Source: Amoebophrya sp. A120
Taxonomy: Eukaryota; Protista; Dinoflagellata
NCBI GenBank assembly: GCA_905178155.1
Contig: CAJINV010000003.1
Location: 1,421,557 to 1,485,556 of the forward strand
Direction of reading: 5' to 3'
Length of the DNA stretch: 64,000 bases
Part shown: one piece after another, positions 5,141 through 54,318 of the stretch
Numbering within the stretch: the stretch's first letter is position 1
Layout: the number at the start of each line of letters is the position of its first letter
Made by a program: the position numbers and the translations under genes
Notes under the pieces: model-generated
The model's database searches: none
What the model saw: the letters and a program-made list of their open reading frames with translations, nothing else
Told to the model about the DNA's origin: nothing

Positions 5141-7934
5141 ATGGGTTCGCTGAGCGGCGGCGTGGCGCCGTCTTCGGGCGGCGAGAGTGAATTTGCGCTG
5201 GCGGAACAGTCAAGAGTCGTGCCCGCGACGTCCGCAACGGTGCGGGCCACCGTGGCGCAGGCGATCGTGGAGTTTTTCCAGAGCCAGTACCTGGAGCAAT
5301 TCGACGGGTCCTACAAGCCGATGATTTACGGGTACTGGGGCATTTTCGGGCACGGGAACGTGTGCGGGTACGGGCAGGCGCTGGAGGAAAAAGAGGAGCA
5401 GGTGCCCTACTTCCGCGGCCAGAACGAGCAGGGCATGGCGCTGGCCGCCATGGCGTTCGCGAAGCAGTCGCAGAACCGCCAGGCCTGTGCGGTGACCACC
5501 AGCATCGGTCCGGGCGCGACCAACATGGTCACCGCGGCCGCCTGTGCGCACACCAACCGGATCCCCCTGCTGCTGCTGCCCGGCGACGTGTTCGCGTCGC
5601 GCCTCCCCAACCCCGTTCTCCAGCAACTGGAGGACGTGAAAGCGCAATACTCCGTGAACGACTGCTTCTTGCCTGTCTCCGTGTTTTTTGACCGGATCTT
5701 CCGCGCCGAGCAGCTTCTTGACGCGCTGCCAAAGGCGGCCCAGGCGCTGGCCGACCCGCAACGCCCGGGACCCGTGGTGTTGTCGGTGTGCCAGGATCTG
5801 CAGGCGGAAGCCTACGACTTCCCGGCCCACCTGTTTCAGCGCCGAAACCACCGGCTGCGGCGGTCGCCGCCGGATGGGTCGGAGCTGGAAGGGCTGAAGA
5901 AGGCACTGCTGGAGGCGAAAAGGCCGCTGTTCCTGCTGGGCGGCGGAGTGGTGTACAGTGGCGCCAAAGAAAGTATCACGAGGTTCTGCCAGCAATCAGG
6001 AATTCCGTGCACCGAGACGCAAGCTGGAAAAGGTATACTACTCATAGTGAACCAATTTTGTTGTCATAATAAAACACTGCGCTTTTGTTTTCGTATGTGC
6101 AGTGTGTACAGTCGCGTGTTCGTGTATTGCAAGGCACGTACTACGCTATTTGTTTAAGCAAAACCAATCCCGCGCGACGTATTCTCTTTTGTACACTTCA
6201 TTTTTTAAACGACCTAGGCTGCGTCCCGGACGACCTGTGTCTTGGCGGCCTGGGCGTGACGGGGACGTACGCAGCGAACAAGGCGCTGGAGAACGCCGAC
6301 CTCCTAGTCGCTTGGGGATCTCGCCTGGGGGATTTTGTGACGAGTTCGAACGCCGGGGTTCCGCCCACCTGCAAGCGAGTGTGCGTAAATTTGCTACCCT
6401 TCGACGCCACCAAGATTTCCGCAGCGCCGGTGGTGGGGGACATCAAAATAGTGCTCGACCAGTTGCTGCAGGAACCAAGCCTCGGCCAGCTCGCCGTGTC
6501 TCCGGAGTACAAAAAGGAAATGCAGGCGCTGCGAACCAATTGGCTGGACATGAGGAGCAAGATCTGTGCGCAACCGACGTCCGACAGCATGGTCGTCGAT
6601 GCCGTCAATCAGGTATTTCCATAGTTTTCCGTCCGGTCAAACTTTTTGTTCGAAAAATAAACTTTTTGTTCGAAAAATCAGTTCTTTTATGTGAACAAAG
6701 AAATTCGACATGCATCTGTGAAATTCCACAGTTTACAACCTGTGGCAGGAAACCGTAGCAGGGCTACTAGATACGTACCTGCTAGTACCTACCATTGAAT
6801 CCAGCCCCGCGACCACCTTAAAACCCTTTCAGGTCTGTCATGCGATCAACGGCGTGGCGGTGGCTGCCGCGGGCGGGCTTCCGGGTGAGATGCACAAGCT
6901 GTGGCGGAGCAACGGGATATCAAATGTAAAAATGTCTGGGTCTGGAAACTTGTGATGCTGGGTGGCGTCTCATGATGAGGCTACAAATGCTGGCTCAGCA
7001 TGACAAGTTTCTGAGCGCCTAGGTGTTGCCTGTTCTGCATGACAAACTGCGCCTCTGCATCACAGAAAAGCGGAGCTCTTGGCTAACGTGCATGACAGAT
7101 TTGAGAGTCACGCCAGACAAGCATGACAAACATGAATTCTTCCAGACCCAGACATTTTTACATTTGATACGGGAGGGAAGACTACCATTTGGAGTACGGC
7201 TACTCGTGCATGGGGTACGAGGTGGCCGGGGGCGTCGGCGTGAAGATGGCGAGTCCAGAAAAGGAGGTCTTCAGCATGTGCGGGGACGGCAGCTGGCTGA
7301 TGATGCACACGGAGATTGTGAGCGCGCGCCTGTTGAAGTTCCCCATATCCGTGATCTGCGTCGACAACAGCGGCTTCGGCTGCATTCACCGGTTGCAAAA
7401 CGGCAGCGGGATCCGAGAGTACGGCAATTTGCAGACGTCTGGCGTTGATTTCGTGAAAAACGCAGAGGCACTCGGCGTGGAAATCTGCGTCAAAACCACC
7501 CCCCCGGACCTGAAGGCGACTCTCATGAAACACTGCACGCCGGAAAACCGAGGTTTTTATCTTTTCACTTGAACAACTCTGGTGGTGTTGCTCCGGGCAA
7601 CGCTAGGAAATTTTGATTTTCTCCTGTTTGATTATGATCATGATGTCTAGAGACAACTTTATGCGCTTGGTTACAGGACGAGGAAATCGAAATTATAAAG
7701 CACTGGTATAAATGGTCTTTCGCTTTCAAGATTTCTGGTTGTGTGATTTCTTCTATAGGTAAGTGCAAGTTGTTCCTCGTGAACACCGATCCGGACATCT
7801 CCAGCCCTGGTTACAGCTGGTGGGACGTGGCCATTCCGGAACATTCCAAGCTTTCGAAGTCCGACCAAACTATCTCGGAAAAGCGAGTAGAGTACGAGAG
7901 GCGGATCGCGGCCCGGAAGTCGGCCAAGTTGTGA
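5141..7934 (+). CDS. iolD: ThDP-dependent 3D-(3,5/4)-trihydroxycyclohexane-1,2-dione hydrolase (exons approx. 5141-6032, 6218-6612, 6833-6917, 7175-7552, 7759-7934)
   Basis: IolD signatures TVAQA, GIFGHGNV.G.GQAL, NEQGMA, TTSIGPGATNMVTAAA, LLLPGDVFASR.PNPVLQQ, AAGGLPGEMHKLWR, YHLEYGYSCMGYE, GDGS, SWWDV. Confidence 0.92.
6918..7169. mobile_element. TIR introner B (TATCAAATG family)
   Basis: Perfect 30-bp TIR TATCAAATGTAAAAATGTCTGGGTCTGGAA; TSD CGGGA (6913-6917/7170-7174). Removal gives WRSNGREDYHLEYG. Confidence 0.95.
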
Positions 7935-8523
7935 AGAGAGGCCCTGAAGAAGTGCTGTGTCTGTCGTCGTGGCGTAGAAGAAGTGCCGCCAGCACGACGC
8001 GAGGAAAAGATAAATTTTGCAAACGAAGAATGAACACAACCCGAATTGTTGACCAACGCGCCGCAGCGCAAAAGAACCTGAAAGCAGCTTCTACAGCGAC
8101 CGGAGTACAATAAGCGTAAGAGGACGGCTGCCCCGCCGTCTTAAAGACCGTCTGACAGCCCTCGCAACAAAGACAAAATGAATTTCCAAAGTCATATCTC
8201 CGCGGCAAATGATGTGACCGGCGATAAACAGCATTGTTGTTTCTGACGGAATTATTTGATCCATTGGGCGACCATCCACTAGTGTTTGTGGTCGCGGGCT
8301 CGTCAAAACAGCCGTGTTTGGTCGTAGTAGCATAAATGAGATCCCCGTCTATTACGGACACTTGCTCGGATTTTTGAGGTCGATGGCAAAAGTAATAGCC
8401 AGTTCGTGGCTGTCGATTGATGGGCAGGAACAAGATGTCAAAGTTACAGAATAACGCAGGCAACCACCAGCTTATTCCTTGTTGACATCTTTTCTTCCGC
8501 GTAGTTTCTTTTGCGTGCCACAA

Positions 8524-19309: not shown

Positions 19310-19922
19310 GCATGATTTTCTTCGCGAGCCATTTGCTAGCATCACAAATTCAGCGACATTCATAAGCACCACATGGAACAAACAAGTATCCTTTTTCTCA
19401 CTTGATGAACATGAGGCAGATTTTCAATGCCATTTTCGTTGATGCTGCACGTGTTTTGTTTACGAAGCTCGTTTGTCGGTTTTGCAGTTTTGAAGCTCGT
19501 CGGTGCTCTTTGTTGCTGTTTGTACTGTAATATCCCACCGAACAAGAAGGGGTTTGACTCACGTGTGAATCGTTTTGGTTATTTGGGCTGTCCGACTTTT
19601 TACATCGGTCCTGCTGGCTGGTTGCATCCGCATCGGTGGAAGGGTGGCGCGCCGACGTGCCGTTCTCTTGGGGGAGGGTTACTTCGAGTTGTTGCTTTAA
19701 GAAAAGGCAAAACAGAATCCTGGTTTTTTCGAAACATGCAAAAGTCGGAAACGGTAGCGACGCAAAGGAGGCTTCTATATGAGTAGTTTCAAACTGGTCA
19801 ATGTGATTCTTCTTTCTTCATTCCGGAGCGTGTCAATCTCATTAGTACATTATAGTCAAAGGCCTTCGGCGTCTGCTAAAACATACATCGCGTGTGTTCA
19901 TTTTTCACTCATTCGTTTTGGA

Positions 19923-23675: not shown

Positions 23676-26600
23676 TTGAAACTCGCGCAGAAAAAGATGT
23701 ACGCCGACGTGTCGCGGCTGCGACGGGCGGCGCAGGGCCAGCAGTACCCGATGGGGGTTCTGCGTCCGGGTGAGGACCGGAAGAAGCCGCTCGACACGCT
23801 TTTGTTCACCCCCGGTATGTACTTTCGGTACAACATTCGCACCAACACGTTGTACCACCAGGCGCTGCGGCAGTACCCCTCGACGGTGGAGGATTCCGGC
23901 TACTACTACGAGAACCCGGTGTTGGCGTTCTACACGGACTGCGCCGCCGCCATTCCAGACCACTTTTTCAACGAGAACGCCAAGGAGCACAAGCGCGTGG
24001 TCGAGAAGCGGCTGAACCCGGTTCGGGAGAACGTGGCCACGTACTACATGAAGTTTATGGAGTATTTGAAGGAGGCCCTTGCGACCTACAAGTGCCGCAA
24101 GATCTACCTGCCCTTCTCGGGGGGTTTGGCACACCAGTTCGAGATCCCGCAGGTGGTCTACCTGAACACCGAGACGCGGCAGTGCGGGAAGTTGCAGCAG
24201 GGGCACTGGTGGAACGTGGACCACCGGAAGGTTGCGGCCCTCGGAGTGCTGCACTCGGATAGCACGTTATACGATACGGCGATCCATGACTCCACGGAGT
24301 ACACCACGACCGTGGAATTTCTGGACCTGGCCCGGTGCTCCCCGGAAGTCGTCATTGTCTGCATCATCCGCCGCGGGTGGGGTGAGGGCGAGGTCACGCC
24401 GGGGATCCTGATCGAACCTAACAAGGAGGAGTCGGAAGACGACCCAGAGGCGCTGTCAGCGACGGCTTCGGACGAGTACATCGCTCACTTGTTTTATGAC
24501 AGCAATTGTAGAGTACAACTTGGAACTGCAGAAAATCAAAATGAGAACTGTTTGGTTTATACATTTAGCGATCGTGAATGAAGTTTCCTTTACATCATCT
24601 TGAAAAATGTTTGCTGCACGCTCCCACCGTTGCTACTAGGTCTTCAGGTGACATGCTTGACCAAACGTCAACCTTCCCAAAAAAAAATTTGCCACAAAAA
24701 AACAGGGAAGTGATGATTTTCGACGACCCGCGCCCGGATCCGGACGTGAAGCCGTCCCTGGAGGCCGTGAAATCCGACGCAATCCTATCCAATAAAAAAA
24801 CGTTGTTAGTGTAAGTTTGTGATGCGCAACACTCAAGATGATTGCGTGTGTCATGCATGGCATGCATCGTAAGGCCCATTAAAGGGCGTTTTCACGTACT
24901 ATCTGCGCATGACAGGTTTTTGCTGTCATGCCAGACAAATTTGTAATGCTATTCCTTCAAAAAAGTTACACCTACAATGTTTTTTTCTTGGATAAATCCG
25001 GGTGTCGCAGCTGGTCGGCGACACCATGAGGTTCGCAATCACGGAAGACCAGGAGTGGGGGCGACAGGCGCTGCTGCACTCCGTGGAGAACTTGGTGGAG
25101 TCGGGGAAACTTACCTCGGAAAAGGGCGACATCCTGCGCGTCCTGGAGGAACAGATTACGCTCGCCGACGATTACTTCTACCTGCTCGGGGAGAGGACCG
25201 AGTTCTGCAAGAACAACTTCTCCATGCTGAACCAGTTGAAAAACAAGTACGACGTCTGGCTGTCCTACACCTTGTCCTTGATGCAGGAGCGCGACCCAGA
25301 TATCTTGATTCGCGACCGCAACCACGCCTTGGAAACCGGAGAAGTGCTCGCGAGTCTCTGCAAGCAGCTGGCAGCCTTGGCCTACGATTCCAGTGATAGG
25401 GTAAAACTTTCATTTTTGGTGTGTTCTACAAAGAGTCTTCGAGTGCTGTCCACCCACTTGGCATGTTCATAGAAGCATCATGGTGACGTTGTTTTTGAAA
25501 TTTCAGCAGATACAAACAGGGGCGATGTTTATCAGAAAATAACCCGAAAAATCTATTTTATTCCAATCCTCCCCAGGTCGTCGAGCTTGCCTCCGTGCTG
25601 GCGCCCCAGCTCGTGCACTACTTCTGCGTGAAGCTGTACCAAAACGGGGACAGCAAGATGGGTGCGGGCACGGGTCCGGCCTTCGAGGCGCTGGTCGCGA
25701 ACATGGCGCGCACCTTTTTCTTCGACGAGCTGCAGCTGCACGCCTACAACCTGTTGATGGACCTGCAGAACGCCAGCAACTGGAAGGCACTGCTTCCCAT
25801 CGTTGCCGGGCACATCGCAGAGAAGCTGGGCGTGTACGTGCTGTGCACCTTCAGCCTCACCGAGGGCCAGGACCCCGTGGCCAACCGCTGGGCGTGGCGC
25901 CGCGACGCCGCGGAGCGCATGATGACCAACCTGCGGGAGGCCATCCCGAATATTCTGTACCCTGACCGGGACAACCACGTCCTCACCGCGTTTGAGCCGC
26001 TGTTCTTCCGCTTCTTGCGGAACGACCCGCTCGCGGCGGCGGAAGTCCCGAAAATGAAGCGGTACGGCGAGTTTTTGGCGACCTTGCTCACCCACGACGG
26101 GTTTTTGGTGCGCCAGTGGGGGTACCAGAAGGGAAAGGAGTACAAGAACCGCGCGAAGATGTCCGAAATTTACAAGCAAGCGATCACGGAAGTCAAACTG
26201 CGAATGGAGGTATACATAGGAACGTAGCTGTGTAGTTTGAGCGATTTACAACGATGGAAGGTGTTTTTGCATTTTACTTGTTTGATTGAGCACATTTTTG
26301 ATTTTTGTCACAGCTGTGAAGCTGCTGCTGCTCCTTGGATCCAGGTTTTTTTTCTGGATTCCAGCCTGTTTGCGTTTCTTTGTGGTTGTTTCCAATAAAC
26401 CAAAAACCCCTCCTGCTACTATCTAAACAGCGCGAGATGCTCTCTGGGAAGTACAAGGATGAGGAGGCCGAGAAGTGCTGGGCGGCTTGTTGGGAGGAGT
26501 TGACGATGACCATCAACGCCTGTTACGTGGAGATGAACATGACGGAGGGGTTCGAGCCCCGTTCCTTTCGCACCTTCTTCCTGGAGCTGCTGGCCGAGCA

Positions 26601-29598: not shown

Positions 29599-30688
29599 AG
29601 CGGCGATCCATAGGACTAGACAGAGGATCAGGATATTTTGACCAGCTGGGCTTCGATTTCGGATGTTCTTGAAGATCATCGGATGATTTCTTTTTACCCT
29701 TAACCATCAACGTGTTTTTTTCTGAATTAGCAACCACAATGTTCAATCGTGACATCTTGACAAAAAGTTACCTTTCAATACTAACTCATCCCATTGGAAG
29801 ATTTTTCTTTAACATAAGTTTGCAAATCAATGCCAGAGTTCAAAATGCTCTAGTACATGCAGAATGTCTCAAACTGTGCCATACTCACCTGTTTTGTAGT
29901 ATAGACGATGTTAGAAAGTAAACTTTTGTTCACAACCTTTGTAAAAAATTATCTTGCATATGCATAGTTTGGTTTCTTTGACAAATTTTCTTTTAGTAGT
30001 TTATAGCACAATCACATTTGCACGATAGCGGCCAGGACAGCCGCCGTCTGGTTTGTACGATTTCAACATACATCTTTAAACGGGAAAATTTACATTGTAC
30101 ATACCTTCTGGAGAAAAAAAACAGCCCGCAAGACGAAGAACGAGCGTGGTCGTTCAAAAAAAAAACGGAAATTCTAGTGCTGTTCCATTCGGTGACAGAT
30201 TTTGACAAGAAAGCGAAACGCCATGTCGTGACCCTTCCGAATAGCATCTGCATGATTCTTCATAGGAAAGGCACAACATCAATTCGAGAGACCACGATGC
30301 TAACCAAAAAATAATCAAGATCCGTTAACTACGCCATCGCAAACCTACATACAAGCACAACGTTGAAGATTCGATCGAACTCGAACGGCAATAATCGCTG
30401 CATGTTGTCGATCATCGTTAGAGTTGTAAGCAAAAGCATATATTTGAATTTTTCAGACGACATACGCATAGACAAGTAGTATTTTTTAGCCATGAACCAT
30501 AGACGCCATCTATGAAACGCGACCGACGCTTTATAGCTAAAACCGAGAAGTAGAGCCCGAGTCAACATTATTTCATGTTTACGAAAAATGAACGAAAATA
30601 GGGCAGCTGTAGGAATGGCCTTGGCAAGAGATCGCATGCTGCTGCGTTGACTGTGGTCGCAGGCGACTAGTACAAGACCCTAAAAATA

Positions 30689-33600
30689 ATGACGGACCCG
30701 TTTGCCGCGGTTGCCAGCGCCTCCGGCTTGCCGGAAGTCAAAGCTGCGGCCCGTGCTTCATCGCGGACGCAGGGTGCGAAGCAGTTCTTTGATGTGCTCA
30801 AAAACGAAGCCGCCGGGGAAAGAGTGGAGCAGGCAATCTTCGCTTTGACGAACAATGCTGACGACAAAAAGTATCTATTCGCCTCTTGGACAATGCATGG
30901 TTTTTGTTGACATTTGCATTACTCCGAAAGCGGGGGTCGTAGGGTCCGGGCTGCCGAACCCGTGGAGAACTTGCGAAAAACTCGGCTACGCGTGTTTCTT
31001 GTCTAGAATATTAGAGGCTGCCGGCGGTCTTTCAAATATGATGATGATCCCGATGATGCAGCACTCCGCGAAAGTGACGCGGGCTTTCGCGTTGAGACTT
31101 CCCGTTACGCCTGCGACTGCTAGCCGGCGCGCCGTTTTGCGCCGAGGGGCCTCTGTGTGTCCGCGCCGCGCGCCCCTCCTCATCTGTAGTTGCCCGCGCC
31201 AAGTCTTGTAGGCAGGCTGCCGGGGCCGTCCGCTTGCGCCTTTGGTTTCCTTGGCATTTCGTTGGCCACATGCGCGCGATCTGCGCACTTGCTTCGCAAA
31301 GAAGTTGCTGCAGCACCATCGTGTAACGTACGTTACACGATGGCGCTCTGCTTGTTTGCCTTATCGCTTGCCGGCCTAACCAGGGGAGAGAGCCCTGCTT
31401 TTGGCCTGTCCATGGCACCATCGTGAGTAAAGTTAGCCACGACGGAAATGCGTTTGGTTGTTTTCGCAGCTTCGGGCGCACTGTGCTACGCCTGGGAGTT
31501 AAGGCCGGGCGGGGTGGCTAACGGCTCCACAGGCGTGCCAGAGGCCCACCAGAGCAAGGCAGCTTCCAGCTGCGTGGCGCGGTTTGGGCGGTTGTAGATG
31601 AGGCGCCGCGGTTGCAGCCTGGCGCCCTATTACCCAAGAAAACCGGCCACGGCTCTCATGCGCCAGAACTTGCGCCCGAACAAACTTGATCCAGAACTTG
31701 TTCCAGAACTTGTTCCAGAACTTGTCTCAGAACTTGGCTCAGAACTTGTCTCAGAACTTGCCAGAGTGGAGCAGGCAATCTTCGCTTTGACGAACAATGC
31801 TGACGACAAAAAGTATTCGCCTCTTGGACAATGGTTTTTGTTGACATTTCCAGCGCCCGTGCTCTCTGCTCGCTCGAACAAAAGATTGACCGACGTTCTA
31901 GTACCTCATTGCTGCTAGCCGTGGCTGTCAATTCATCTTGCCAATTCCGTTCCAGCATTCATTTGAAGAGAGCCCACTATCTGCAAAAACAAAATCAAAC
32001 AGCTACCGTATGCGCATACGGCAAGTCATCGGCGTGTTGAAGCAGGAGAGGTTCGGGGTGCTGCGTGAAGGTACCGAAAGCTTTTTTTTTACGCACTGTG
32101 TAGTGGGTTTGGGTGGCGTCGCATGGATCAACAATGGGATGGCAGCGTGCACCAAACTGACTGTATAAGTTCAAATAGTGATAACCATAACTAGTGCGTT
32201 GGAAAAACTACAAAAACTATAGGTATCGTTCGCGATGTGGTCGATCTTCGTGACCTGGTAACCACCAAAGTCACAGCAGCAGCGGTCAAGCCCGCATACC
32301 TGAACGAGATCAAAGAGCGGCTTAAGGACAAAGAGGTACTTACGGACAGAGAATCCATTTCTTTGACGGGTCCGTAGTCGCATCCGACTTCGAAGTGAAT
32401 ACTTATTTTGTCCGAACGCAAATCTAATTCTTCAACAGGTCATTTTCCAAACCAAAAACGTAAAAACAGTCGTCGCAGCAGGGCGGATCGCCATCGACGA
32501 CGGGGAACCATTCGAAAGCTTCATCGCCGGAAGGAGATGGGACAACGTCGGATGCCGTGGAAGCAAGCAAGGCAGCATCGGCGTCTTCTACGGCACCAAA
32601 AGCGCAGATGCCGCAACCACCGGCTGCAGCACGCGTGGCGGAGGTAGCACAACAACCCGCAGCGCGCGCCCCACCAGCAGCACCTTCCACCGCCACAGCA
32701 CCACCCGCGGGAGCGGGACCTCCCGCGCCAGCCGCTACAAGCAGTCCGTTTGGTGCCATGGGGCCGCCTCCGCCAGTTGCAGCATCGGCGCCAGCACCGG
32801 AACGCGAGAGTACCGCCACCTCGGGGGGCACATCTACTCCCCCGGTTCCAGCGCCAAGTGCGTTTGGTGGACCACCACCGTCCGCGGACGGCAGTAAAAG
32901 TTCGGTTACAACCCCAGCGGCACCGCCCGCGCCGCCCGTGCCGCAGCAACAGATGATGAACCCCCCTCCCACTCCGGTGTTGCAGACAAGCAAGAAGAGC
33001 CAGCAGCAGGTCCCTCCACCGCTCGCGACCTCCCAATCCTCCCTCATGCCCGTCGCTCCGCCACCCGCCACAGCGGGAGCAGCAGGTAGTCCCTCGCCGG
33101 CAAGTGCGACGTCGCAATTTCCCGCGTCAGGAAATCCTTCTCCCGCCTCCGCGGCGCCCCCGTCGGTATTAACAGAGCATCCGTCCTATCAAGTGTAAAA
33201 ATGTCTGGGTCTGGAAGAATGCAAGATTTGTGATGCAGGTTTTCCATGACCCATGAGGTCTGGAATGCGAAACCCAGCATGACAGATTCTTTGCGGTCTC
33301 TATCATGCCTTTCCCGCATGGGAAACTCCCTCTCAACTTAGTCAAAAGCGATAGGAAGGAAAGGAAAGTAGTGAATCGCGCAAATTAGATAGAGAGGATC
33401 AAGAATGGCGTTTCTAGTGCCACGCTTCAAGCCACCGCCGAAGAAGGAGAAAAAAGAAGAGGTGCGAAAATTAGACAGGCTGAGCACGCTCCTGGAGGAA
33501 ATGGAAAGGGATACAGAGAAGCTGCGAGAAAAGATAGAGAAGGAAAAAAAAGACCCAAATGAAAGAGCAACGGTAGCCGAGCTAATAGAAAAAAGGGAAA

Positions 33601-36600
33601 ACGACACAAAATTGACAGGGAAGGCGAGGCCAACCATGACGATCGATGAGATAAATAAAAGGAGGGGAAGCATGAAAATGCGTATACTAAAGAACCTGAT
33701 AGAAGTGCGGAGGAAGAGAAAGACACCCATGACAAAGTGGCTGCGTAGGACGCCGGAGAAAGACGCATCAGGAAAGGCGCTAACAATGAAACAGAGACAG
33801 CATATAGCGAGGGCAATGAGATTGAAAGCGGGGGCGGAAAAAATGAAAAAGCGATTTGCCGCAGCGATAGGAAGTGAGGAGACAAACACGGAGCTGGAGG
33901 ACGAAAGAGACAAGAAAAGGGCGCTAGGAATAGTCCGTCTAAGGAGGATGAGCAGAATACAGTGGAAGATACATATCGGCGATTACATGAGAAGGTGGAG
34001 GGCGCAGAATAAGAAAAAGAAGAAGGCAAAGGCTCTGCTGAGTAAGGATAGAAAAGAAATAATCAATACAAACTCGAAGAATGCACGGAAGAAACTAGCG
34101 CACGCGCTCGAGTCGGAGGAAGGATACAGGGAGTGGCAGAAGCGGGCTCGAGCGCTAATAGAGACGAAATCGTATAAAGGGAACGAAGCCCTAGTTAGCT
34201 TGTCGCGGGTCGAAAGATTAGAACACGAAAAGAAGAGAAAGCAGCGGGCTGCACAAGGACAAGCAAAGAGGATGAAAGAAGCTCGGAAGAGGGAAAATAA
34301 CACACAGAGAGCAGACCGGCTGCGGAAAATTCGGGAAAGGAGAGAAGAAGCGGACAAAAGGGCGACGATGAGGAGCGCGGGTGGTGGCTGAGGGAAGCGT
34401 GCAAGTCAACAAGAAAAATTGGGTCGATGAAAAGATAAGATCTAACTAAGGGAGAGAATAGAGATCAAAAGGAAAACAGTTTAGCAACAACAAAAGAGAT
34501 CAGTAAACCGCAGGGCACCGACTAAAAAGATGGTAGAGAGGTGCAGTGTGTTCAAAAAATATAAGATGACCAAAAAACAAAAAGCAGCGATGAAGTATAT
34601 TGGTGAAGCAGAGAGAAGGCGTCAGCTTAGAGCTGTAGACTGAGAAGAAGTAGTAGACTTTTTGAAATGGCGATGAATAAACAGGAAAGTAGCGACCTCG
34701 TGCATTTTATGTCAAGTTTTTAGTATTATTTTGTTCCCTTTATTCGAAGAGGGTAGAATAGTAAACAGCTAGCGTAGCAATAGTAGGAGTAGACGGCTCT
34801 GATAGTCAAAAACAGTTAAAAATAATACAAAATAGTGAAGACAAGATGGACGGGAACGAAAGAAATGAGGATAGAAAAGTGCAGGAAAGCCTGCTACCGC
34901 GTGAAGCACCGGAAAGACGAGACGATAGCAAGGAAAGGACGGGCGCAGAAGAAAGGGAAGGCGAAATGGGAGAAGAAAAAGAAGATTGCAACGACAACGA
35001 GGAGGAGCCGGGCGGATTATGGAAAGGAGAAACGCAAGAAGAAACGGGGGAAGAAGAGAAAAAAGAAAGAGATGATGGGCAGGATGTTCTAAGAAGAGAG
35101 CGACATATGTTCTGGAACATAAACGGGGTTAAGCGCCTGAATGCGATTAGACTAGTGAAAGCTTACAGAGATATAGTGCCAAAAATTACAGGGGCGAGCT
35201 GCGCCGAGCTGAAGACCGCCGCCCTGACACAAGATCAGGCAGCCTTCAAACATGTAGAAGAGGAGATGAAAAGATTAGGAATGGAGGGGAGGCCAGGGAT
35301 ATACTTCGCAGCCGCCACAGACATGAAAGGCGTGGCGTCAGAAATGAACTCGGGAGCCGTAGGGATAGTATACACAGACGAAATGAAGAAGCTACCAAAA
35401 AAGACAATGAGAAAGGAGATTTTCCGAAGGGAGAAGGGGGGCGCATTCTTCCAGAGAGATGTGACAGACAAGGAGGATATACTATTATGGATGATCGCAG
35501 CGGAGGACGAAAGAGGAATGCTAGTGGTCGCGTTCTATCGGAGACCGGCAAAGGACACACCGAAAGACTGCGAAGAGGTAGCGTATATAAGGAAACAGAT
35601 GCAGGAAATGACTTCAGCGCTCGAAAAAATGATAGAAGAGGCAGGAATAGCAATACTGGCGGGAGATCTAAACTGTCAGTATCAAATTGATGAAGGAGGA
35701 AAGGTGAAATTTGAAAGGGAACGCACAGGAGTGCAAAAAGTCTACTTCAGCGAAATAATAGAACCGATACAGAAGATTTTCAACAAACACGCTGAAACGT
35801 TAACAACAGGAGGCCCAACATGCTTCCGAAACCCGGAAAATCCGACAACGATTGATATAGTAGCGATAGCCGAAAAAAGGGCAAAAGTTGTGGCGAAGAC
35901 CTGCGACAGAATTCAAATACCGCGGACAGTAAAAGAGGAAAACGGAGAAGACAAGGAGGCAGAGGGGGAGAATAAAGAAGAGGAGTCGGACCACGTAGCT
36001 CTGCTAGCAGACATAGTGTGGATCCCAGAGCCCGAGAAACCCACAGAAGAACAAAAACAGAAGAAAGAAAAAGAGCAAAAGAGGTGGAAATTTAACGCGC
36101 GCTATACGCTGATGGTGCCGACAGTTGAAAGCTCAAGGCAGCGGATCGAGATCATAAAAGGGAAAGAAAGACTTCAGAAGAAAAACCCTGTCACGCAGTT
36201 GGTGAAATGGCCGAGAAAGTCGGTGACGTTAGAAAGACTACAGCAAGTGATGGAAAAAGCAGGGACGGTGCCAGAAGATCGTAGGAGCATGCTAGGGATG
36301 CAAAAATGGCTGATGGAGAAACTAGGAGAGGCAGGCGTGCTGAAATTAAAAGAAGTACCGAAACAGGACGCGAATTACGAAAATTGGCAGAAGAAGAAAA
36401 AAGAAGAGCGAAAAACGCAGGAGAAAGAAGAGAAGAACGAGGAAACCGCACGACAGCAGGAGCAAAAATCAAAACAGGACGAAATGGAAAAGGCATGGCT
36501 GGCGTCATTCGCAGAGAAGCCAAAGAAGGAAGAGAAAAACGAGAAAGCGGTTTATGAGACGGCTAGAAAGGTGAAAGAAGCTGTGTGCGGGGTAGGCAGA

Positions 36601-39600
36601 GGAATGCCGATGGGGGAGGCGAAAGAAGTAACAGTAGGCGGCACACTAGTGCAAGGGGTGGAAGCAGCGACAGAAAGGATAGCGAGTAGCCACCTCCTCA
36701 AGTGTGAATTCGTGAGAAAGCAAAATGACAAAAAGCACACGTATGACGGAAAAGAGCTCGAAAAAGCGCTAAGACAGCTCACGCAAGCATGTAAAGAAGT
36801 AAAGAGCATACGATTTACGGGGCCACAATTACAAGCACATGTCTCAAAGTTAAACAGTGAAGCAGCAGGCATGGATGGGCTCCGACAAGGAATATACCGC
36901 GCCCTCACACCAGAACAATACCAAGTGCTAGCAGAGGTCTTTAATAGGTTTTTAGAAGAAGTGGAGGAGTATGAGATGAAAAGAAATGAGGGAAGGGGGC
37001 CGAAGCTCCTGGAGGAGCACCTCAATGCGGCGCAGGTGGAACTGTTGAAAAAACAAACAGCAGCAACAACGGCAATAGAAAAGATCCGGACCGTGATACA
37101 GGGGACAGCGATAATGAGGGTGTTGCTGAGCGTAGTGGTATATGAAATGGTGCGGGTAGCCGACAAAAATGACGCATTCACCCGATGCGGTTCAGCATCA
37201 AAACCAGGAGCAAGCTGCCAAGCCACAGCGCTGCAGGTCTTGGAGACATGTCACGAGGGGGAAGAGAGGGGCGAAGCGGAAACACCGGACGAAAGAGAGG
37301 AGGGAGGTAATGGGAAGGGGAAAAGAAGAAAGGAGACGGTAGTCTTTGGGCTAGATGCGTCCAACTATTTCAACAATATAGGGCTACCGAGGGCAGTAGC
37401 AGCATACAGAGCTGCAAAACTACACCCGTGTTTCATAAAGTTGATAATAGTAACAGCGTGGACAAAGGATTTATGGATCAGAAACGGGGATTGTTACGGA
37501 CATGTACTAAGACACCGCGAACTCATTCAGGGCGCAGTAGAAACGATGTTAGCGGGGACCCTGATTTTCCTCCCAGGGGTAGAAATAATCGCGGAATTCC
37601 TCGAAGAAATCTTTAATGAAGACGGTAGGGCTGAAGAGGAAAGGCTAAAAATAGCAGAAGCAAAGATGAGAACGAGGATTAAAAGGCTTTACAAAGGGGG
37701 CGACATCGATACAACTTTCCCCGATTACAATGTCAGAGAAGAAGTCGACGAGATCTACCTCAAAGAAGCCCAGCCAGTAGTCACGGGATACAGAAAGGGA
37801 GAGAAGGTAACGACAGAGCAGGGAAAAAGAAAGGTGAATGAGAAAAGAAAAAGGGTGGAGACTCGATACTACTCAGGAACACTCCCCGGAGACGGGAAAA
37901 GAAGATGGACCCTATGCGTGCAATACGTGGACGACGGCACAGTTGTAATAAAGTTCTTTATCGAAGATATACAAATAGTAGCGCGCGCGCTCAGAGCAGC
38001 ACGCTGGGCATATGAGGAAATATACGCAACCGAAGGACAATTCTTGGCACCACAGAAGTGCGAAGTTGCAACGTCGATAGAAGACCCGCTGAAGGTAAAC
38101 GTGATCAGACAGGCCTTCCAGCCTTTCGGGATTTTGTTCGAGGAAAAGATATTTCTGAAGATTCTGGGGATCAAAATAGTGCCAAAAGACAAAACGGAGC
38201 AAGCCAAGGCCCTGCGGGGGCAGGTAAGACAAAGTATAGGGATAGGACAACACTTGGCGTACCAAGTAATGGCGAAAAGGGGAAGGCTCAACGGCGAAGA
38301 ACTCACGTGGGTAGTGCAGGTCTTCTTCGTGTCGGCAATGATATACTTCCTGCCAGTGATGCATTTATATTTCGACCTAGGAGACTGGGCGGAATTGATG
38401 GGCGAAATGGCGCTGACAATAGCCGAAACATTGGGAATGACAACGGAGGCAGTGGAAGAGCTGATGGCCCGAACAGAAACAACGGCGGAGACATTCTATA
38501 GGGTAGTGTTCGGGATGAATTTACTCGGACTAGCTGACCCGTACACGATGGGACTGAAAACGTTGCGGGCAACGGCGCAGGCAAACTACCTAACAGACCC
38601 GGCCTTGTTCGCACCATTAGCAACGACGCCAGTGAAGGTAGTAGGCGAAGCAAAGGCGGGCATCCCGAAAACAGAAGAACGAAAAATGCTGAAAAGAAAA
38701 GAAGCCGACATAGCACTGCTGCGGGCGCTGAAGGACGGCGCGACAGTCAGGCTATCGCCGGGGAGTGACCTGCGTGCAGTGGGGATCGTGAAGGAGAGAA
38801 GCGCGCGGGCCCCCCTAAGGGTAGAGGATCAGTATACACACAGGGGGAACGCGGGATTGGTAGTCAGCAGGAACAGAAAAGGAGGCCTCGGGAAGAAAGG
38901 TCAGAGCAATAGGATGCAAAAAATATGGGTGAAGCATGCCGGAAACGAAAGAAGTACAACCGTCACAGTACAGGAGGCAAGTGAAAGGACGGAGACACAC
39001 CTGAGGACGATAGAGACAAAAGTGGAGCACCTAAAGACTGAAATAAGAACAGAGGAAAGGACTTTCGTGGCATATTGCAACAACGCAATGAGGGCCATAG
39101 AAATAGTCACAGAGAAGAGGAAGAAAGAAGGCGGAGCGGTGCAGATTATACTGCTAGACTACAACGAGTTAAGGGAGAAGACCAGAGGGATACTACGCAA
39201 AGGGCACGGAATAGGCTTGGAGCTACAGGAGACAATAGAAAAAGCCGAAAGTGAGGACCCGGGCCTAAATATAGTAACGAGAAGGGAAAAAGGAAATGCA
39301 AGCAGAGCAGAAACGATAAGAAATATAGACGGAGGGACAAAAGAAGAGATACCGCTCAGGGTGGCCAATGTGTTAAATCACGACAATGAGTATACGGACT
39401 GGGTGCGGTTCGACTTTGGGACGAAGCGGATTCCACTGAAACCGGTGTGGGAATGGCCGGAAATGTCAAAAATAGAAAGGCAGGTATACATACATAGGAA
39501 AATGAAGGATGAGGAGACAGAAGGGGACAAAAAGAAAGAAAAGGCAGAAGCTGGGGATGGCGAGGAAATGAAGCAAGGCTTAGGAGAGAAAGACAGCGCG

Positions 39601-42600
39601 AAATCACAAAAGAGGAAAGAAACGAAAAAGAACACCAACACAGAGAGGGTAGGAAAGGGGAGTGGCGCTGCAAGTAGTCAAAGCAGAAATAGCCGGGAAA
39701 ATGTAGAAAGAAAACAAGAAGAAAAAGGGGAAGAAAGAAGGGAAGGAGAGACACTCTCAGAAACTATACTGCGACTAATCGAGAAAGAGAAGAAGAAAGC
39801 AGAGGAAACTGGTGACGAGATGGCGCAGGGGGCATTCAGAATAATCCAGAAAGCGACGAAACTGTTGCAGGAGGTAGAGGAGGCGAATAAAGAAGATGAT
39901 GGTAGAAAGTTAAACGAAAAAGAAAGGGGGCGGGAGGAAGGAGACCAAGAAGAAAGGATCAGCGAAAACGGAGAAGAAGAAGAAAAAAAAAGCTTCTACG
40001 AGGCGCAAGAATATGAAGGCACTCGGAGAGGATACGTGTTTAAAAGAGGGGCGATGGGACAGGGATACTATATAGATCAGGGTCCAGAAGAGGCAACGCG
40101 AACATTTTTTCGGAATCTGGTGGCGTGGGGGGAAGAGGAGAAAAGGGACGCGATTAATAAGGAGCGGGCGGAGGAAGGTCAAGACGAAAAAGGGGTGGAC
40201 CAAGAGCAGCAAAAACGGAGAAAAGTGGAGAAACAAGACAAGGAAGCGAGCCAAAACGGTGGTAGCGAGGACGAAAAAAAGAAGCGAACGACGGAGGCCT
40301 CCAATTTCCCCACAGTCGAGAAATTAATGGCAGATGACCCCATGACATTGATGCAGAAAGAGAATGTACAAAGGGAGAAGGAGAAGAGGATACAAGAGGA
40401 GAAGAGGAGGAGGAGGCAAAGGAAGTACGAAACTCCTATGCAGCGAGAACTAGCCCAAATGTATAGAGCCCTAGAAAAAGAAAATAGTGATGGAAAGTGA
40501 ATGAAGAAAGAGAAAAAAGTGACTGCAATACGTTTATTTCTTTTGGATGAGATTGATGAATGGATAGCAAAGTAGAGGCAATGTGAGGCCTTATACATGA
40601 ATGAAATAAAGGAGCAAAGAAGACACAGACCGGGGCTCAAAGCGAAAAAGAAAATGCGGGGTGTTCTGGCGGGTGCAGAGGGAAGAGCGTAGACAAAAAA
40701 TGTAACAGAAAAGAGCGAAAAAAAATGAGGCGACTGCGTATGGTTCTTCTTTCGACACGTTCCACGCCAGCCCGGAGGGGTGCGGCGATGCTAATCATTT
40801 CGTTCCCGCCAGCCGTAAAGGCACGGCGCTGCCTATCCTCCCCTCGTACCGCCGAACCGCATGCGCTGACGCATTAGGAAACGAAAAGAAAAAGAAAGAG
40901 AAGAAAGAAAAACTATATAAAAGAAGTGGTGCCAGGGTTGCTATTTTAAAAGACTGCGCTAAGGCAGCACCCCCCTTCCCCAAGGGGTCCCCCCGGGGCG
41001 GGCGCGATGGCGGCTCTGCGAATGCGGAGCTCCGCGGGCCGTTTCTATGGAAACGCATATAAAAGGGTGCGGGAAGAAGATCGGCAAAACGTGTCTGAAA
41101 GGGACACGCCGTTGGGTTGCCCGCCATCGTGATAGGATCACCGTGTCTGATCATTAGACCCCCAGTATACTGTTTAGCGCGCAACCGGCCACGCACGTAG
41201 TCCTTCGAGCAAGTTTGTAAGACTAACCCATCAAGGCAAAACTGGAACTCCACCTTGCTCGCGGGCTTGGATGGTAAGGCAGGTCAGCCACACATAGCGC
41301 CCACTGGTTGTAGTCATGCGTAAGCAATCGATAGCGGTTTGGCAGGTGCAGCCGGGTGGTAGTTAGGAAGTGGACCGTGTCTCCACCTAGGGGTATTGGC
41401 AGAGGCTAAATCTGTTCTAACGCCCAGGTATTGGCAGAGGCTAAATCTGTTCTAACGCCGACCCGCCAGGAGTTAAATGGTACTACTACTACTAACTTAG
41501 TCAAAAGCGCCACCTAGGGGTATCGGCAGAGGCTAAATCTGTTCTAACGCCCAGGTATTGGCAGAGGCTAAATCTGTTCTAACGCCAACCCGCCAGGAGT
41601 TCTGTTCTAATGGTATGTAGTGAGGTCACCGAACGGTTCTAACCGGGGAGTTTTTTTGCCAGCCAGACAGCAAAACGGCCGCCAGTTTTCAAGCGGGCGG
41701 AAGCGTTTTTGGACATAAAAAGTTTTCACTTATCAAGCGGCCGGGGCTTTGATAGCAAACAAGCCCGGTCGAAAACTATCGATTCGCACTTGATAAAACG
41801 ACGCAGGGGAGCCGGCAAAAGGGGCGCCCTTTTGAGGCGCCCACCGCCTTGGTTTCTGGCGATTTGGGGCGCCCAAAAAGGGGCGCGCAAAAAACGCGCC
41901 CAAAATCAGAACAGCGAAACAGCATGGCACGGCCGCGATTTCGGAGCATTTTGGGCGGCCGCGAAAGCGGCCGCCTTTTCGCCGGCTTTAGAGCCTGGGA
42001 AGCATCGCAAAAAGCGCCGGCGTGAAAAATAAAAACGCGAAAAAGAAAAAGCGCCCCAGACGCGCAAAGCCAATCCGCATGCTACGGGCCCGATTTTTCT
42101 TCGCTTTTTGGGCGCCCCCCGTGGCACCCGGATCGGCCCCATAGCATGGGGGCTGGCCTTCGGAAAGGAATTTCGGGAATTTGCCAAAATTTGCGATGTT
42201 TATGAAGCGGCCGCCATACCGTGCGGCCTAACGTTACTCGCGGCGGTATGGTGAGCCCATAAAAAGCAAAGCCACGGCCAAGGCGATGGCCGGCAAGAAA
42301 ACGCCCACGACCTCACTACCTCCGCCCCGGCGGCTATATTTGGTACTACTACTACTAACTTAGTCAAAAGCGGACAGCTTCTGGCACTCACGCAACACAG
42401 ATTTTTGCATTATTTAGATTTAGCATGACAACTTCAAATCTTCCAGACCCAGACATTTTTGCATTTGATACGTCCGCAAGTAGCGTCATCACGGCAGAAT
42501 CGTCGCGCGTGAAACCGTTGACGCCATCAAAGCAGCAAACGGGCGGGGACCCTTTTGGTGATGTGGATCCCTTCGGAACTCCGGGGCAAAATCCGTTTGG

Positions 42601-45600
42601 AACGCCCGGACGGCCCCCACCGGAGGTGCTGGCGGCATCGAAACAGCAGGCCGCTGGTGCGCGCGTGCCACCCGCGCCGGCACCAGCAACTTCCAGCAGT
42701 GCATCTGTGGTACCAGCAGGACCGCAGCGGGCGCAACCAGCCGCCGCTAGTACCGGTCGTGAGCCGCCCCCACAACCTACGGGTACAGCGAACCCTTTTG
42801 GAGGACCAGCACCTGCGTCGCGAGTTGCAGCCCCCGCCGTGGTGCAACAACAACAGCAGGCTTCTCCCGCAGTACAGCCGGTGAGGGCAAACACAACGCC
42901 CACGATAACAGAAGCAGCGCAGCCTCCCGTCGTGGCAAGTGCGAAGCCGAAGGTTCCGTCGCCAAGGGGAGTGTCGGTGCCTCCCGTCACCTCACCAAAT
43001 TGGTTCGAGAACGAGCAGAAAATGGATAGCATCGAGGCAAAGCTGCAGAAACTGCGGGAGCAACGTAGTTTGGTTTTTTTCGAATGAGGATGCTTGAAAA
43101 ATTCGTCGATTTTAGTTTTACGTTGATGAAGAAACTACTTATATCACTCCGGGGAAGAAGTGACGCTCCATTGATGATCCCGATTATCTGGTAACCAAAT
43201 GCGTGCGCGCGCGCGCGCAGAGCGCGCGCCGGCCCACGAAGCCGGCGCGCGCGCTCTGCGCGCTTGCGATATTGCTTAGCAAACGCAGCGCGAAGGCAGT
43301 TGCCGTTACCATATAGGGCAACCGCCGGGAGGCGTGAAGGTCAGGGAAATGGCCAGAAATGAAGCGGGAGAAGGGAAAAAAAGCGGACCAGATGGGAAAA
43401 TGGCCAGGAGGTCAAAAATGTCGCAAAAACGGCAGAAACCAAGCGGGGGAAGGTGGAAAAAGAGCATTTTTGCTGTTTGGCCCACTTGATATCTGAAAAA
43501 GAGACGGACTGTTTTTTGCTCCGCCCGCTGGGCAGCTGCGTTGGAGAAGCAGGCCCGCGACCTGTTCGGAAGCCTTGGGCCGCTTCGTAACTGGAAAAAG
43601 TTGGAAAAAAATGACAAAAAATTGCTTCATAGCGTGGGCGGAAGCAATCGTCGGATTTTGTGCAGATCACCCGGGCCACTTAGAAAAAGGAAAAAGATGA
43701 GAAATTGCGCAAAAGCGCAATCCTTCCGCAGGCTTCAAAACTGCCAGCCAGATGCGGGCGGTAAAAATGTGCAGGTCGCTGGGGCCACTTAGAAACCAGA
43801 AAAAAGCGCGAAAATTAAAAGAAATCGAGAACCCTCGGCAGGCTTAGAAACTGGCCACCAAGGGCGGTCCGGCGGGCGCGCGCTTACGCCGTACCATCGC
43901 GATTGGGGAAAAAAAACCGCACTAGAAGCGGGCGGGGGTATGTCACAAAATCCCCATTTGCCCTGGGTTGTGAGCAGAAATTCGGCATCTTCCCCGGGTC
44001 TGAAATGGCCGATTTTGGTGGCCCGGAAGGGTTCGCGGGTTTTCGGCCTTCCACATACCTCCCGGGCCAGGGGGCCAGTTTGTCATGCAGGGGGCTAGAA
44101 AGGATGCCCCGCTGCGAGCTAGCAGACCGGATTTCGCATTCAATGCTTATCGCAGGAACCTGCGATAAGCTTTGAATGCGAATCCGGAAGCCTCCGATGA
44201 CCCGGGATAGCAGTGGGATTCTAATTAAAAAGAAATGGTGGTGGCAGCCGCGCGGCGCAAGCGCGGCCCGCAGGGCCGCGCTTTCGCCGCGCGGCTGGTT
44301 AGGCTTTCGCGCTGGTTAGATTTTCGCGCACGCATTTGGTTACCAATATCGCCCTCCGGGCGCGACATTCATATGATTTCTATACTAACTTTTCACGCAT
44401 TTAATCGATGAATCATTAGATCTATCTTGCAAAAAACCTTTTCCACCATCTGTTGCTGCAAACGACATTCGTTTTTCTTTCAATGTGGAGACGTTGGAAA
44501 TCAAAAGCGTCCTATCGTCTACCTTTTGCAGCCTTCACGCAAAGTTGCATTTTTTTGCAAAAACCAAACACAAAAACGTGGTTTTCGTTTTCAGTTTACT
44601 TTTCGTTTGCCTTTTCTCATGAACAAAAAAAAACAAACCAGGTATCGACATGGAGCACCAATTTGCACGCACACGAGAGACGGTCACGCAGGAGCGAACC
44701 CGCCGAAAGTCGGAGGTTCGCACCCCCGACAGCAAGCAGCAGGCTGCGTTCGAGAAGGATCGCGTGCTGCTAGAATCCGAGCGCGCGAAGTTGGACAAGG
44801 ACCGATCGGCTTTCGAAGACCGGGTGCGGCAGTGGGAGGCGGACGTGCAAAGACAAAAATCCCAACTGGATTCCGACAAGGCGCTTTTGGAACAGCAGAA
44901 GCACGCTTTCAACCTGTCGAAGCAAGCCGCTTCCAGTCACAATTCCCCCACAGCCTCCAAGGGCTCGGTCATGGGCGTCACCTCGCAGGAGCGAGAAGCA
45001 TTCCAGGCGGAGCAAGCCGCGTTCCAGGCCGAGCGAGAAAACGAGCTGAAGAAAATCGAAGCGGAGAAAAAGCGATTGGCCGTCGAACGAGAAGTGTTCA
45101 AGAAAAAACGTACTTATTTTGGCGATACTTACTATACGTGCGTTTTCTGGTTTCTGATTCCAGTATTTTGGTTCTATAATTGGAGTCGGCAAAAAAAATC
45201 CGCCAGGGTTTTTTGAGTCGTTTGTTTTTCGCATCTTGTTCTGTTTTGCTTTCGCTGATTCATTGATTCCTTCCTCTATGCTTTGATACCTGTTCGCTAT
45301 CGAATGAAATTCAGAAGCAGAACTGTTGGCGTCGGGATCCTCTGGAGCCATTGCCCAGGCCAATCTCGAAGCGGTGGATCCGCAGCTGCGAGCTAAGTAC
45401 GAACACTTGAAAAAGGAGTACCGCAACCGGGCAAAGGAGCTGGAGGACGTGAAAATGGAGAACACACTGTTCCGCCGGCTGGAGCAGAAACGAAACCAGG
45501 AACAGAAATTCACGGAGGAGGAACTGAAATACACCTACGAAAGCAAAATCAAGCAGCTCAACGCCTTGCTGGAGGAGAAGCGTATTACTTACTGCTGAAT

Positions 45601-51563: not shown

Positions 51564-51903
51564 CATCATTTTGAGCAGAACATTGAGTACTTATTGCGAA
51601 CGGTAGTTCTTGGATTGCGAGACCTAAAAGTACTTATTTTGACGAGGAACAAAATCAAAATCTTTGGGTTTGGCACACGTAGTACATCTTGGGGCGCGAT
51701 AACCCATGCCGCTTGTGAGCCGCGTGACGGTGCGGTGGTTCGCAATTTTTTTGGCCGATTTCGATAAATACGAAAACAGAACTGCCACGTTAGTACAAGA
51801 TTAGAAAGGAGGTCAGAAACATGATAGTACACCTTCCAAGACAGTAGAGTGGATCTAAACTTCGTTTTTTCTTTCTCTGGTACAACAACGAAGCGCAAGA
51901 AAA

Positions 51904-54318
51904 ATGCGGCAGCCGGTGCCTCGGGCACACCTTACGACAGGGCGTTCTTTTCTGTTGCAATTGCGGTCTTTTGCTCGTCAGTCGAAGGGAAGTGCCATCC
52001 GACAGAAGGCCGATAAGAGCCGGCTAAGCAGCCTGGACCGCGAGCACCAGAAAACTAAAAGACTGGCGGTCGACGCCCTGGAGACGCGGAACGAGTGGAG
52101 CACGACCAGGGACCCCGGTGCCACGGACGCCGCGGAGAAATACGCAAAAGCAGTGTCGCGGCGATCGCAATTCGAGCTTCCGGAGGCACCCAGTGGCGTG
52201 CGCAAGAGAAGTTTGGCGCAGCTCGGTGGAGGCGAAAACAGAAGTTCCTCCTCGTCGTCATCTTCGAGTGTACTAACCACTGCGCAAAGTGGTCGCGCAC
52301 CGAGTCAGCGGTCCGTCGGAGACATCACCGACGCGGAGATCCGCGGAATCTTTCCCGCCGACGTGCTCTCGTCTCCGTATCCTGCGGCGAGCCGGCTGGT
52401 GAAGCGTCCACATCTCTGGATGGACAGCTGCATGCCAGGGGAAAGCGCTGAAGATGAGCACGGGGACGATTCCGACAGCAGACTAAAAGAGATCGCCGAA
52501 TGCGAAGCGGAGTTACAGCGGCTTGGAGCTGGTGGTGGTGCAACTACAACAACTGGGAGCGACCACACTGAGACCAACGATGTTGACCTCGCGTACACGG
52601 ACCTAATCGACGGCGACGACGATGCATTGGTCGACCAAGCATCCTCGACGTCTTCGCGCAGTGCGGCAAAGAGCGATTACAACACGCGAGAACAACAAGA
52701 AATCGTGGTTCCCAAGTTGGCCGACGTGGGTAAGTTCGAGCGGTTTTCCCGTGACGACCTACTGGAGCTGCTGCCCGAGGGTTTGGGTGGGGAGCTGTCG
52801 CGTGACCTGATTTTGATTCCAAGCCAAACAAAAGATGTCGGTTTTATGCTGCGTAAGCCGACAGTGGAGATCCTGACACAAATGGCCTACCTGCAAAAAG
52901 ACGCAGAACAGGTCTTCGATAAGAACAGTGGAACAGGCGGACCTCCACAGGATTCGACATTAGACGGAGTGTTCGACGTGCGAAGTAAAAATTACGGAAA
53001 GAGGAATTTCTTATCCCCGCCACATCGAAATCGGGCCGCCTTAATTTCTTCCCGCGCAGGGTGGCTGTTGGAAGGGAAGAAGGGTGTCGGGAAGAGCGCC
53101 GTTTTGAATCACGTGGTCGCGTGGGCCCGGAGGAACGGGTGGCTGGTCGTTTTCGAACCGTTCGCTGCAAATTATGCGAAGGAAATTTCGGACATTGCCC
53201 GGTCCTCCAACTCCGGCATCTACGTGCAGAACTCCCACGCGAGACGGTTTCTGGAGCGGACTTTGTTGAAAAACGCGGAATTCTTCGAGCAGATTCCGGT
53301 CGACCTCGCCGTGTACGGCAGGGCCTGTGTGGACGGGGAACCCAGCGGAAAAGTGCACCAGGTCTACGACGAGCTCATCCAAAAAGCGGTGGACAAAGAG
53401 CTCGGCGCTAGTACTGCGGGAGAAGATCATGCGAATACCTCCTCCTCGTCCTCAACAGTGGAAAGGAATCGCGAGCGCCTACGGTGCTTCGAGAAGTACC
53501 GCAGGCGGGTGGTCCTGCCCTCGCTCAAGGCGCAGCTGCCCGAGCCCGAGAACCTGTACCAAATAGTGCAGTTCGGGCTCGACCACGAAACCTGGGCCAC
53601 GCAAGCGGTGGCGGAGCTGATGCGGCAGCTGCAGGTGCAGACAAAGTTCCCGGTGCTGGTCTGCGTGGACGAGTGGAACGAGTGCTTTCCCGTCTCCGAT
53701 TTTGTTTCCATGCGGTACGACGGCACCAGATTCGGCGGCTACATCCCGGCGTACCACTTGTCCATGTGCCGGCGGTTTTGCGATTTCGACGGGCACCGGT
53801 TCATATCAAATGCAAAAATGTCTGGGTCTGGAAGATTTTGAAATTTGTCATGCTTGTCTGGCATGACCAAAAAGTTTGTGATGTGTGTCCAAGAAGAGAC
53901 CCTTTTGCCTGTCATACAAAAACGCAGTCTGTCATGCGAGAAACGCAACACAAAGAAGCGCAGATATTTCTCATGCTTGCCTGTGCATTACAGAGCATTC
54001 ACTATTCCCAGCGCAGCATTACAAGTTTCCAGACCCAGACATTTTTGCAATGCATAGTTCAAGCGCGGGCTGAAGCTGTACTCGACGTCCTGGTACCGGA
54101 TGAACCGGCGGGATTACCGCCCGGAGCTCTTGGGTGTGAAGCCGGAAAGCATCAAGCAGGTGCGCGAGTTCTCCCCGTTCGAGTTTGCAAACTACTGTGC
54201 GTATTTCCGGTTACAGAACATTACCTACAACTTTCCGCGGGAGAAGCTCGAGCAGTTCTGGATGCTCACCCAAGGAAATGGGTGGCAGGCACGCAGAACG
54301 CTCAGTATGCTGTACTAG
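51904..54318 (+). CDS. DAP3: Mitochondrial small ribosomal subunit protein mS29/DAP3 (exons 51904-53803, 54062-54318)
   Basis: Transit-peptide-like N-terminus, LRKPTVEI, P-loop GKKGVGKS, WARRNGWLVVF, FPVLVCVDEWN, VREFSPFEF. Frame is restored by introner removal (HRFKRGLK). Confidence 0.85.
53804..54056. mobile_element. TIR introner E (TATCAAATG family, opposite orientation to B)
   Basis: TIR of about 30 bp; TSD GTTCA (53799-53803/54057-54061). The interior matches the reverse complement of B. Confidence 0.93.

Follow-up and report, generated by a model that had tools for sequence, protein, structure and literature searches.

Introners in a 64,000-nucleotide (nt) stretch of the genome of Amoebophrya sp. 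A120 (contig CAJINV010000003.1, positions 1,421,557 to 1,485,556 of the forward strand; the window, numbered here from its first letter) are likely removed at the RNA level, exactly and with indifference to their orientation and target sequence. These introners are elements resembling MITEs (miniature inverted-repeat transposable elements), with 5-bp target-site duplications (TSDs), and nearly all of them lack any GT-AG splice register. We lean towards their removal by a modified (relaxed) spliceosome that recognises the symmetric pair of ends instead of GT and AG.

Introners of the window

The elements were catalogued from scans for TAT...ATA arms with flanking repeats, together with reading by eye. 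The catalogue comprises 11 two-ended elements (A to J and G0); in addition, K is a 5′ half, and L is a left end located at the edge of the window. A 5-bp duplication flanks ten of the 11 two-ended elements, with one mismatch in two of these (F and G0); there is none at I. The window elements carry a terminal inverted repeat (TIR) starting TAT, and elements at the scanned loci described below fall into families of repeats (clusters of 58, 29, 13 and 10). Judged by these sequence features, the window elements are members of the TAT...ATA introner class published for A120 (Farhat 2021, PMC7789003).

Introner A: 2027-2344 (TAT...ATA 2032-2339), + strand; TSD GAAGT; in a cupin / nucleotidyl-transferase gene
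Introner B: 6913-7174 (element 6918-7169), + strand; TSD CGGGA; in iolD; orientation opposite to E
Introner C: 24781-24999 (element 24786-24994), + strand; TSD AATCC
Introner D: 33182-42475 (element 33187-42470), + strand; TSD CGTCC; 262-nt element split by a nested insert
Introner E: 53799-54061 (element 53804-54056), + strand; TSD GTTCA; in mS29/DAP3
Introner F: 55453-55689 (element 55458-55684), + strand; mismatched TSD TTTGC/TTTAC; host protein P0121
Introner G0: 56251-56527 (element 56256-56522), + strand; TSD GCAGG/ACAGG; host protein P0121; absent from the list of the earlier note
Introner G: 56576-56796 (element 56581-56791), + strand; TSD CCGTG; host protein P0121
Candidate introner H: 59718-60014 (element 59723-60009), no strand assigned; TSD GATCG; host exon putative
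Element I: 62302-62563, + strand; full length, reverse complement of D; flanks CAGCC/CGACC, which are no matching TSD
Introner J: 62988-63249 (element 62993-63244), + strand; TSD AAACG
Element K: 63297-63384, + strand; 5′ half, orientation as I
Element L: 63876-64000, + strand; left end, in a metacaspase exon

An earlier note on this DNA, made from the sequence alone, had placed the elements in conserved exons of the + strand. This holds for A, B, E, F/G0/G and L; I and K, both of which lie in a rearranged metacaspase region, and H are at most candidate exonic introns. C, D and J lie in open frames that match no family, and a search for a homologue of the host exon of D found none. Rfam gave no match in the window.

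Orientation, target sequence and splice registers

We compared element interiors, trimmed by 35 nt at each end, in the same and in opposite orientations, with shuffled sequences scoring 27 at most. The interiors of B and E score 82 as reverse complements and 22 in the same orientation; the corresponding values are 199 and 23 for D and I, and 68 and 18 for D and K. Aligned with the reverse complement of I, D is identical at 214 of 262 positions. The earlier proposal that one family sits here in both orientations is therefore upheld.

When the element and one TSD copy are removed and the junction is slid through the TSD, no GT-AG register is found in any of the elements A to J, and the TSD of C contains no G, in agreement with what the note had said of C and of six others (A, B, D, E, G and J). 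The single exception among the 11 is G0, which has a GT-AG register at 56255-56526 and is the only window element with canonical U2 or Aureococcus-type borders (GT/GC donor, AG acceptor). In each of the host frames tested, reading through the elements is blocked by stops or by a shift of frame, as had also been claimed.

A scan with the shared end motif yielded 139 loci (of ~380 stretches estimated), all from one other assembly whose kinship to A120 is not established. An exact 5-bp duplication was present in 189 of 297 candidate pairs; requiring at least four of five TSD matches, resolving overlaps and taking out duplicates left 208 elements. The host strand was called for 129 of these by a codon model trained on the window genes, which in a leave-one-out test on 162 pieces was correct in 91 of the 92 calls made at the threshold used. 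Orientation relative to this predicted strand was balanced in the four interior clusters (27:29, 12:15, 5:7 and 5:2, together 102 of the 129), and the assignment of orientations within clusters gave no inconsistent edges. Against the computed host strand there is no orientation bias, and hence none of the strong kind that the note had said would contradict its proposal. A GT-AG register occurs in 7 of 111 elements in sense and 3 of 111 in antisense, and NNAGG targets occur four times with 2.9 expected, which is no enrichment. Of 108 partner ends, 102 retain an intact end triplet, a degree of conservation no higher than that of the rest of the arm.

Removal from RNA and retention in DNA

Four RNA-like contig sets from one sample, their type guessed, were mapped on 24701-44700; we treat them as mRNA because GT-AG introns are skipped in them. 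At D, three of the four contain the joint 33181>42471, which skips 9,289 nt with a 5-nt slide, while the fourth has no listed piece across the element. The dinucleotides at this joint are CG..TA, and a GT-AG alternative of the same length (33195-42483) is present but unused. A 5,293-nt contig with the D joint also splices four GT-AG introns on the + strand. None of the RNA contigs listed in this mapping covers C.

A second mapping used two of the RNA-like sets, one DNA-like contig set and one raw-read set; here the coordinates of contig pieces, not listed joints, gave the junctions of E, F, G0 and G. In one RNA contig, the stretch between 56251 and 56792 measures 52 nt, as left by exact removal of both G0 and G; the length removed equals that of the two elements plus 10 nt. 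Another piece of the same contig starts at 55689, just past F. At E, one piece of an RNA contig stops at 53798 and the contig goes on for another 362 nt, as exact removal predicts; the joint itself is not listed, and we infer the exact removal of E from this agreement. Removal at non-GT-AG borders is seen in a direct joint at D and in contig coordinates at F and G, and one target-site copy is left behind in the RNA-like contigs. At L, RNA contigs stop at 63875 and continue outside the window.

The annotated proteins agree with these results. P0001 corresponds to removal of B together with one TSD copy and shows no gap against nine homologues at the junction, and P0121 fits exact removal of F, G0 and G; no residues are gained or lost at B, F or G. 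Both proteins come from transcript-based annotation and are therefore not independent of RNA. Across the E junction, a solved mS29 homologue is one residue longer than exact removal would give, which we read as a probable species indel.

In the DNA contigs (depth ~40-45), both junctions of F, G0 and G are bridged with the element present, so the excision from DNA that characterizes the internal eliminated sequences (IESs) of ciliates is not seen there. E is crossed with just 24 and 27 nt inside the element, under the 31-nt rule. Of the two routes that the note had left side by side, removal at the RNA level is thus supported, and IES-like excision of DNA is largely not.

Stem pairing

The note had attributed removal to a symmetric terminal stem. 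Both arms share one consensus for ~30 nt, and such near-identical arms would offer any directional signal inside them in both orientations. Balanced orientation is accordingly no proof of stem-dependence, because symmetric ends give the same sequence either way. The terminal stems predicted for B and E greatly exceed shuffled sequences in stability (z -7.9 and -5.3). Among the elements from the scanned loci, however, G·U pairs in the sense strand did not outnumber A·C (85 versus 95; 118 of the 129 elements), nor did the sense strand fold better than the antisense, being lower in 64 of 129. Non-Watson-Crick combinations occur at stem positions 4, 5 and 7 in 40, 41 and 60 of 118 elements, respectively. 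Selection on stem pairing was not detected in the loci tested, and the long redundant stems of young copies could hide it. Of the proposal, the unbiased occurrence in both orientations, the disuse of nearby canonical sites and the small part that the interior plays are supported; pairing as such may or may not matter.

The position of the cut

The mismatched TSD of F makes its junction informative. Its mRNA keeps base 4 of the left TSD copy (the G of TTTGC), and P0121 has at this point an Ala that the paralogue and one homologue also have; register 4 and register 5 are therefore the positions left for the cut. At G0 it is register 4 that gives GT-AG. All eight canonical donors checked in the window start with GTA, four of them with GTAT, and T occupies +2 in all nine top non-canonical motifs of A120 (Farhat 2021, Table S4, PMC7789003). 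Four of five non-silent TSD transitions have the A/T base in the right copy, a weak trend. A test for a variable cut register found 13 of 20 mismatched TSD pairs silent, no different from the approximately half expected under a fixed register (p 0.13).

Element D and its nested insert

D is interrupted by a long insert with the following features:

Nested insert: 33335-42372, + strand; 16-bp target duplication 33335-33350 / 42357-42372; TAC-repeat tail
Insert open reading frame (ORF) 1: 33393-34391, + strand
Insert ORF2: 34765-40500, + strand; endonuclease and reverse-transcriptase-like

With the insert taken out, D matches an uninterrupted copy in one of the scanned loci (L063) at 90% identity; that copy carries the target of the insert once where D has the 16-bp duplication. 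The long target duplication and repeat tail are marks of retrotransposons without long terminal repeats (non-LTR). ORF2 itself has no Pfam or PDB match; its ESM Atlas neighbours are endonuclease/reverse-transcriptase clusters (0.93-0.95), two of eight scanned relatives match Exo_endo_phos, and a DD pair is invariant. The insert has only nine relatives among 1.84 billion representatives. On its sequence, the insert is likely a divergent non-LTR retrotransposon. From its perfect 16-bp duplication and an ORF2 open over 1,911 codons, we take the insert to be young. The 3′ end of the insert with its target copy occurs twice, at 41478-41509 and 42341-42372. Since genomic D holds this 9-kb insert, removal would need little of the interior, and it apparently tolerates a 9-kb one; the cells sampled for RNA may themselves be without the insert.

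Mechanism of removal

Removal by the modified spliceosome is the explanation that we somewhat favour. The 5′ cut would lie at register 4, a single base ahead of the terminal TAT, thereby presenting an N-TAT donor from either end that would match +2 to +4 of the organism's GTAT/GTAC donors. The 3′ cut would lie 4 nt past the partner ATA, set by its distance from a paired or protein-bound end and not by AG. As one TSD copy would always be left, each insertion would be silent at the protein level, and this would explain the absence of selection on orientation and target sequence.

Several observations weigh against this explanation. The 3′ cut is unmarked by sequence, which is difficult for a spliceosome. 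Register 4 derives from a single informative element, F, at which it is not distinguishable from register 5, and the T at +2 in the published motifs may stem from aligner tie-breaks. No lariat, circle or intermediate was seen; the raw-read set gave only three mapped reads, and the RNA evidence consists of contigs of one sample. The orientation counts come from another assembly and from a predicted host strand, not from RNA. Finally, two strand-called copies have an altered end triplet within apparently coding sequence (coordinates on the searched strand):

Copy in locus L035: ~1138-1399, altered terminal triplet
Copy in locus L084: ~301-552, altered terminal triplet

These two copies are natural tests of a possible requirement for TAT/ATA.

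A possible but less probable mechanism is RNA splicing independent of the spliceosome, in which an endonuclease and a ligase, or a TIR-binding protein, would act on the paired ends and release a circle or a linear RNA. The very stable predicted stems of B and E would be expected of it, as would the freedom from AG and target constraints and the genomic 9.3 kb spanned at D; moreover, U1 was not found in A120 (Farhat 2021, PMC7789003), and euglenid introns of similar anatomy leave as circles (PMC11282704). It accords poorly with the missing G·U excess and the equal folding of the two strands, with the frequent lack of pairing at positions 4, 5 and 7 near the ends, and with a cut that, as inferred, gives a donor-like N-TAT and shares its register with G0, a plain GT-AG intron. 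We are doubtful of a dedicated RNA excision system, blind to orientation and target, that would recognise nothing but the pair of transposon ends, whether across 200 nt or 9 kb, and act exactly and without lariat chemistry; if it existed, it would be an RNA-level counterpart of ciliate IES removal. For D alone, the 9-kb insert might be polymorphic in the culture, with the RNA coming from cells that have the 262-nt form. The insert is young, and the DNA and RNA runs are different samples; nevertheless, it is present in the assembled window and no RNA joint is listed for the short form, though a spliced intron need not show one, and we regard this polymorphism as improbable.

Precise excision of DNA before transcription, whether IES-like or mediated by a transposase, would restore the pre-insertion sequence exactly and without regard to orientation, and the contigs, which drop rare variants, do not cover other life stages. 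It is nevertheless very unlikely, in that F, G0 and G are kept in the DNA contigs and are missing from the RNA-like ones; moreover, Amoebophrya is not known to separate germline from soma, so that excision would be inherited. We give still less credence to the use of nearby canonical GT/GC-AG sites by the mRNAs. Frame-keeping pairs of this kind lie within 25 nt at 10 of the 11 elements, and G0 is canonical; yet the D joint is CG..TA with the same-length GT-AG pair unused, G is removed although it alone has no such pair, and the annotated proteins neither gain nor lose residues at B, F and G. Such sites are ruled out at D by the RNA joint and at G by the absence of a pair, and the use of nearby canonical sites, which the note had accepted as fatal to its proposal, was not observed at D.

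Canonical introns and neighbouring genes

The canonical acceptors at 32002, 32222, 32469 and 44641 are preceded by A/C-rich tracts, with no pyrimidine tract. The last of these ends a 1,577-nt GT-AG intron (43065-44641), spliced in all four RNA-like sets, that contains a palindrome-rich insert of ~1.16 kb (~43185-44342). A 98-bp exon-intron junction repeat (30821-30918 / 31763-31852) flanks an insert of ~930 bp in a spliced GT-AG intron of 1,132 nt. An intron with a GA donor, from 55156 to ~55371, is suggested by a piece of an RNA contig that stops at 55155 in front of GATACG. At position 26134 one RNA contig has one base fewer than the window, possibly an assembly error.

Six copies of a metacaspase 5′ exon segment, ~1 kb apart and with different repeat-like inserts between them, occupy 58096-63440. 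I and K flank a fragment of another gene, which carries J; the arrangement is likely a rearrangement between element copies. The iolD gene (5141-7935) is 45-49% identical over its full length to nine aligned homologues, the named ones bacterial, and no other eukaryote-labelled protein is among the 120 matches listed; iolD may be bacterial in origin. Its first exon matches a protein labelled Amoebophrya sp. A120 with 100% identity.

Relation to known introners

Farhat (2021, PMC7789003) describes, in A25 and A120, introners with TAT-starting inverted repeats, 3-5-nt direct repeats (5 bp in the legend to Fig. S19) and a hairpin. Their non-canonical borders are RNA-supported, with the border position called unknown and the mechanism left open, as the note had said. 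In A120, some two thirds of the introns leave without GT-AG; of 89 spliceosomal proteins 83 were found, with no U1. Our elements share this anatomy; unlike the introners analysed there, in the range of 40-1000 bp, D is a compound copy of 9.3 kb. No report of the orientation balance, cut register or multi-kb copy in A120 was found in the literature searched, which covered few subscription papers.

Introners of Polarella, Symbiodinium and Aureococcus are likewise DNA-transposon introns with TSDs, and some classes occur in either orientation, as in Polarella and Aureococcus (10.1101/2020.10.14.339549). A 5-nt TSD class described there cuts in NNAGG, as G0 does. Those introners keep GT/GC/GA-AG sites, need a suitable target and are biased in orientation, whereas here neither target nor orientation constraint is detectable. 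In the nonconventional introns of euglenids, as here, non-canonical ends are joined by a stem (predicted in our case) and repeats lie at the junctions (PMC3935182, PMC11282704). Their defining CA/TG at +4,+5/-7,-6 and their pyrimidine|purine junctions do not appear to characterize our elements; for the CA/TG, the comparison depends on the register, and element positions 4-7 vary between copies. The MITE-derived introns of Fritillaria also combine TIRs and TSDs, and their removal is ascribed to an adapted U2 spliceosome; they prefer AG-AC/AG-AT ends (PMC11282704), and no preferred end dinucleotide was found in the elements studied here.

The elements belong to a known class, and their previously unreported properties make its open mechanism directly testable. 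With mismatched target duplications, the true cut site could be read off RNA-seq that already exists. The results narrow how A120 removes non-GT-AG introns without a detectable U1 (PMC7789003). If two short ends suffice, a whole transposon class would have lost its power to harm exons, and such ends might be usable as a splicing cassette that is portable and scar-free.

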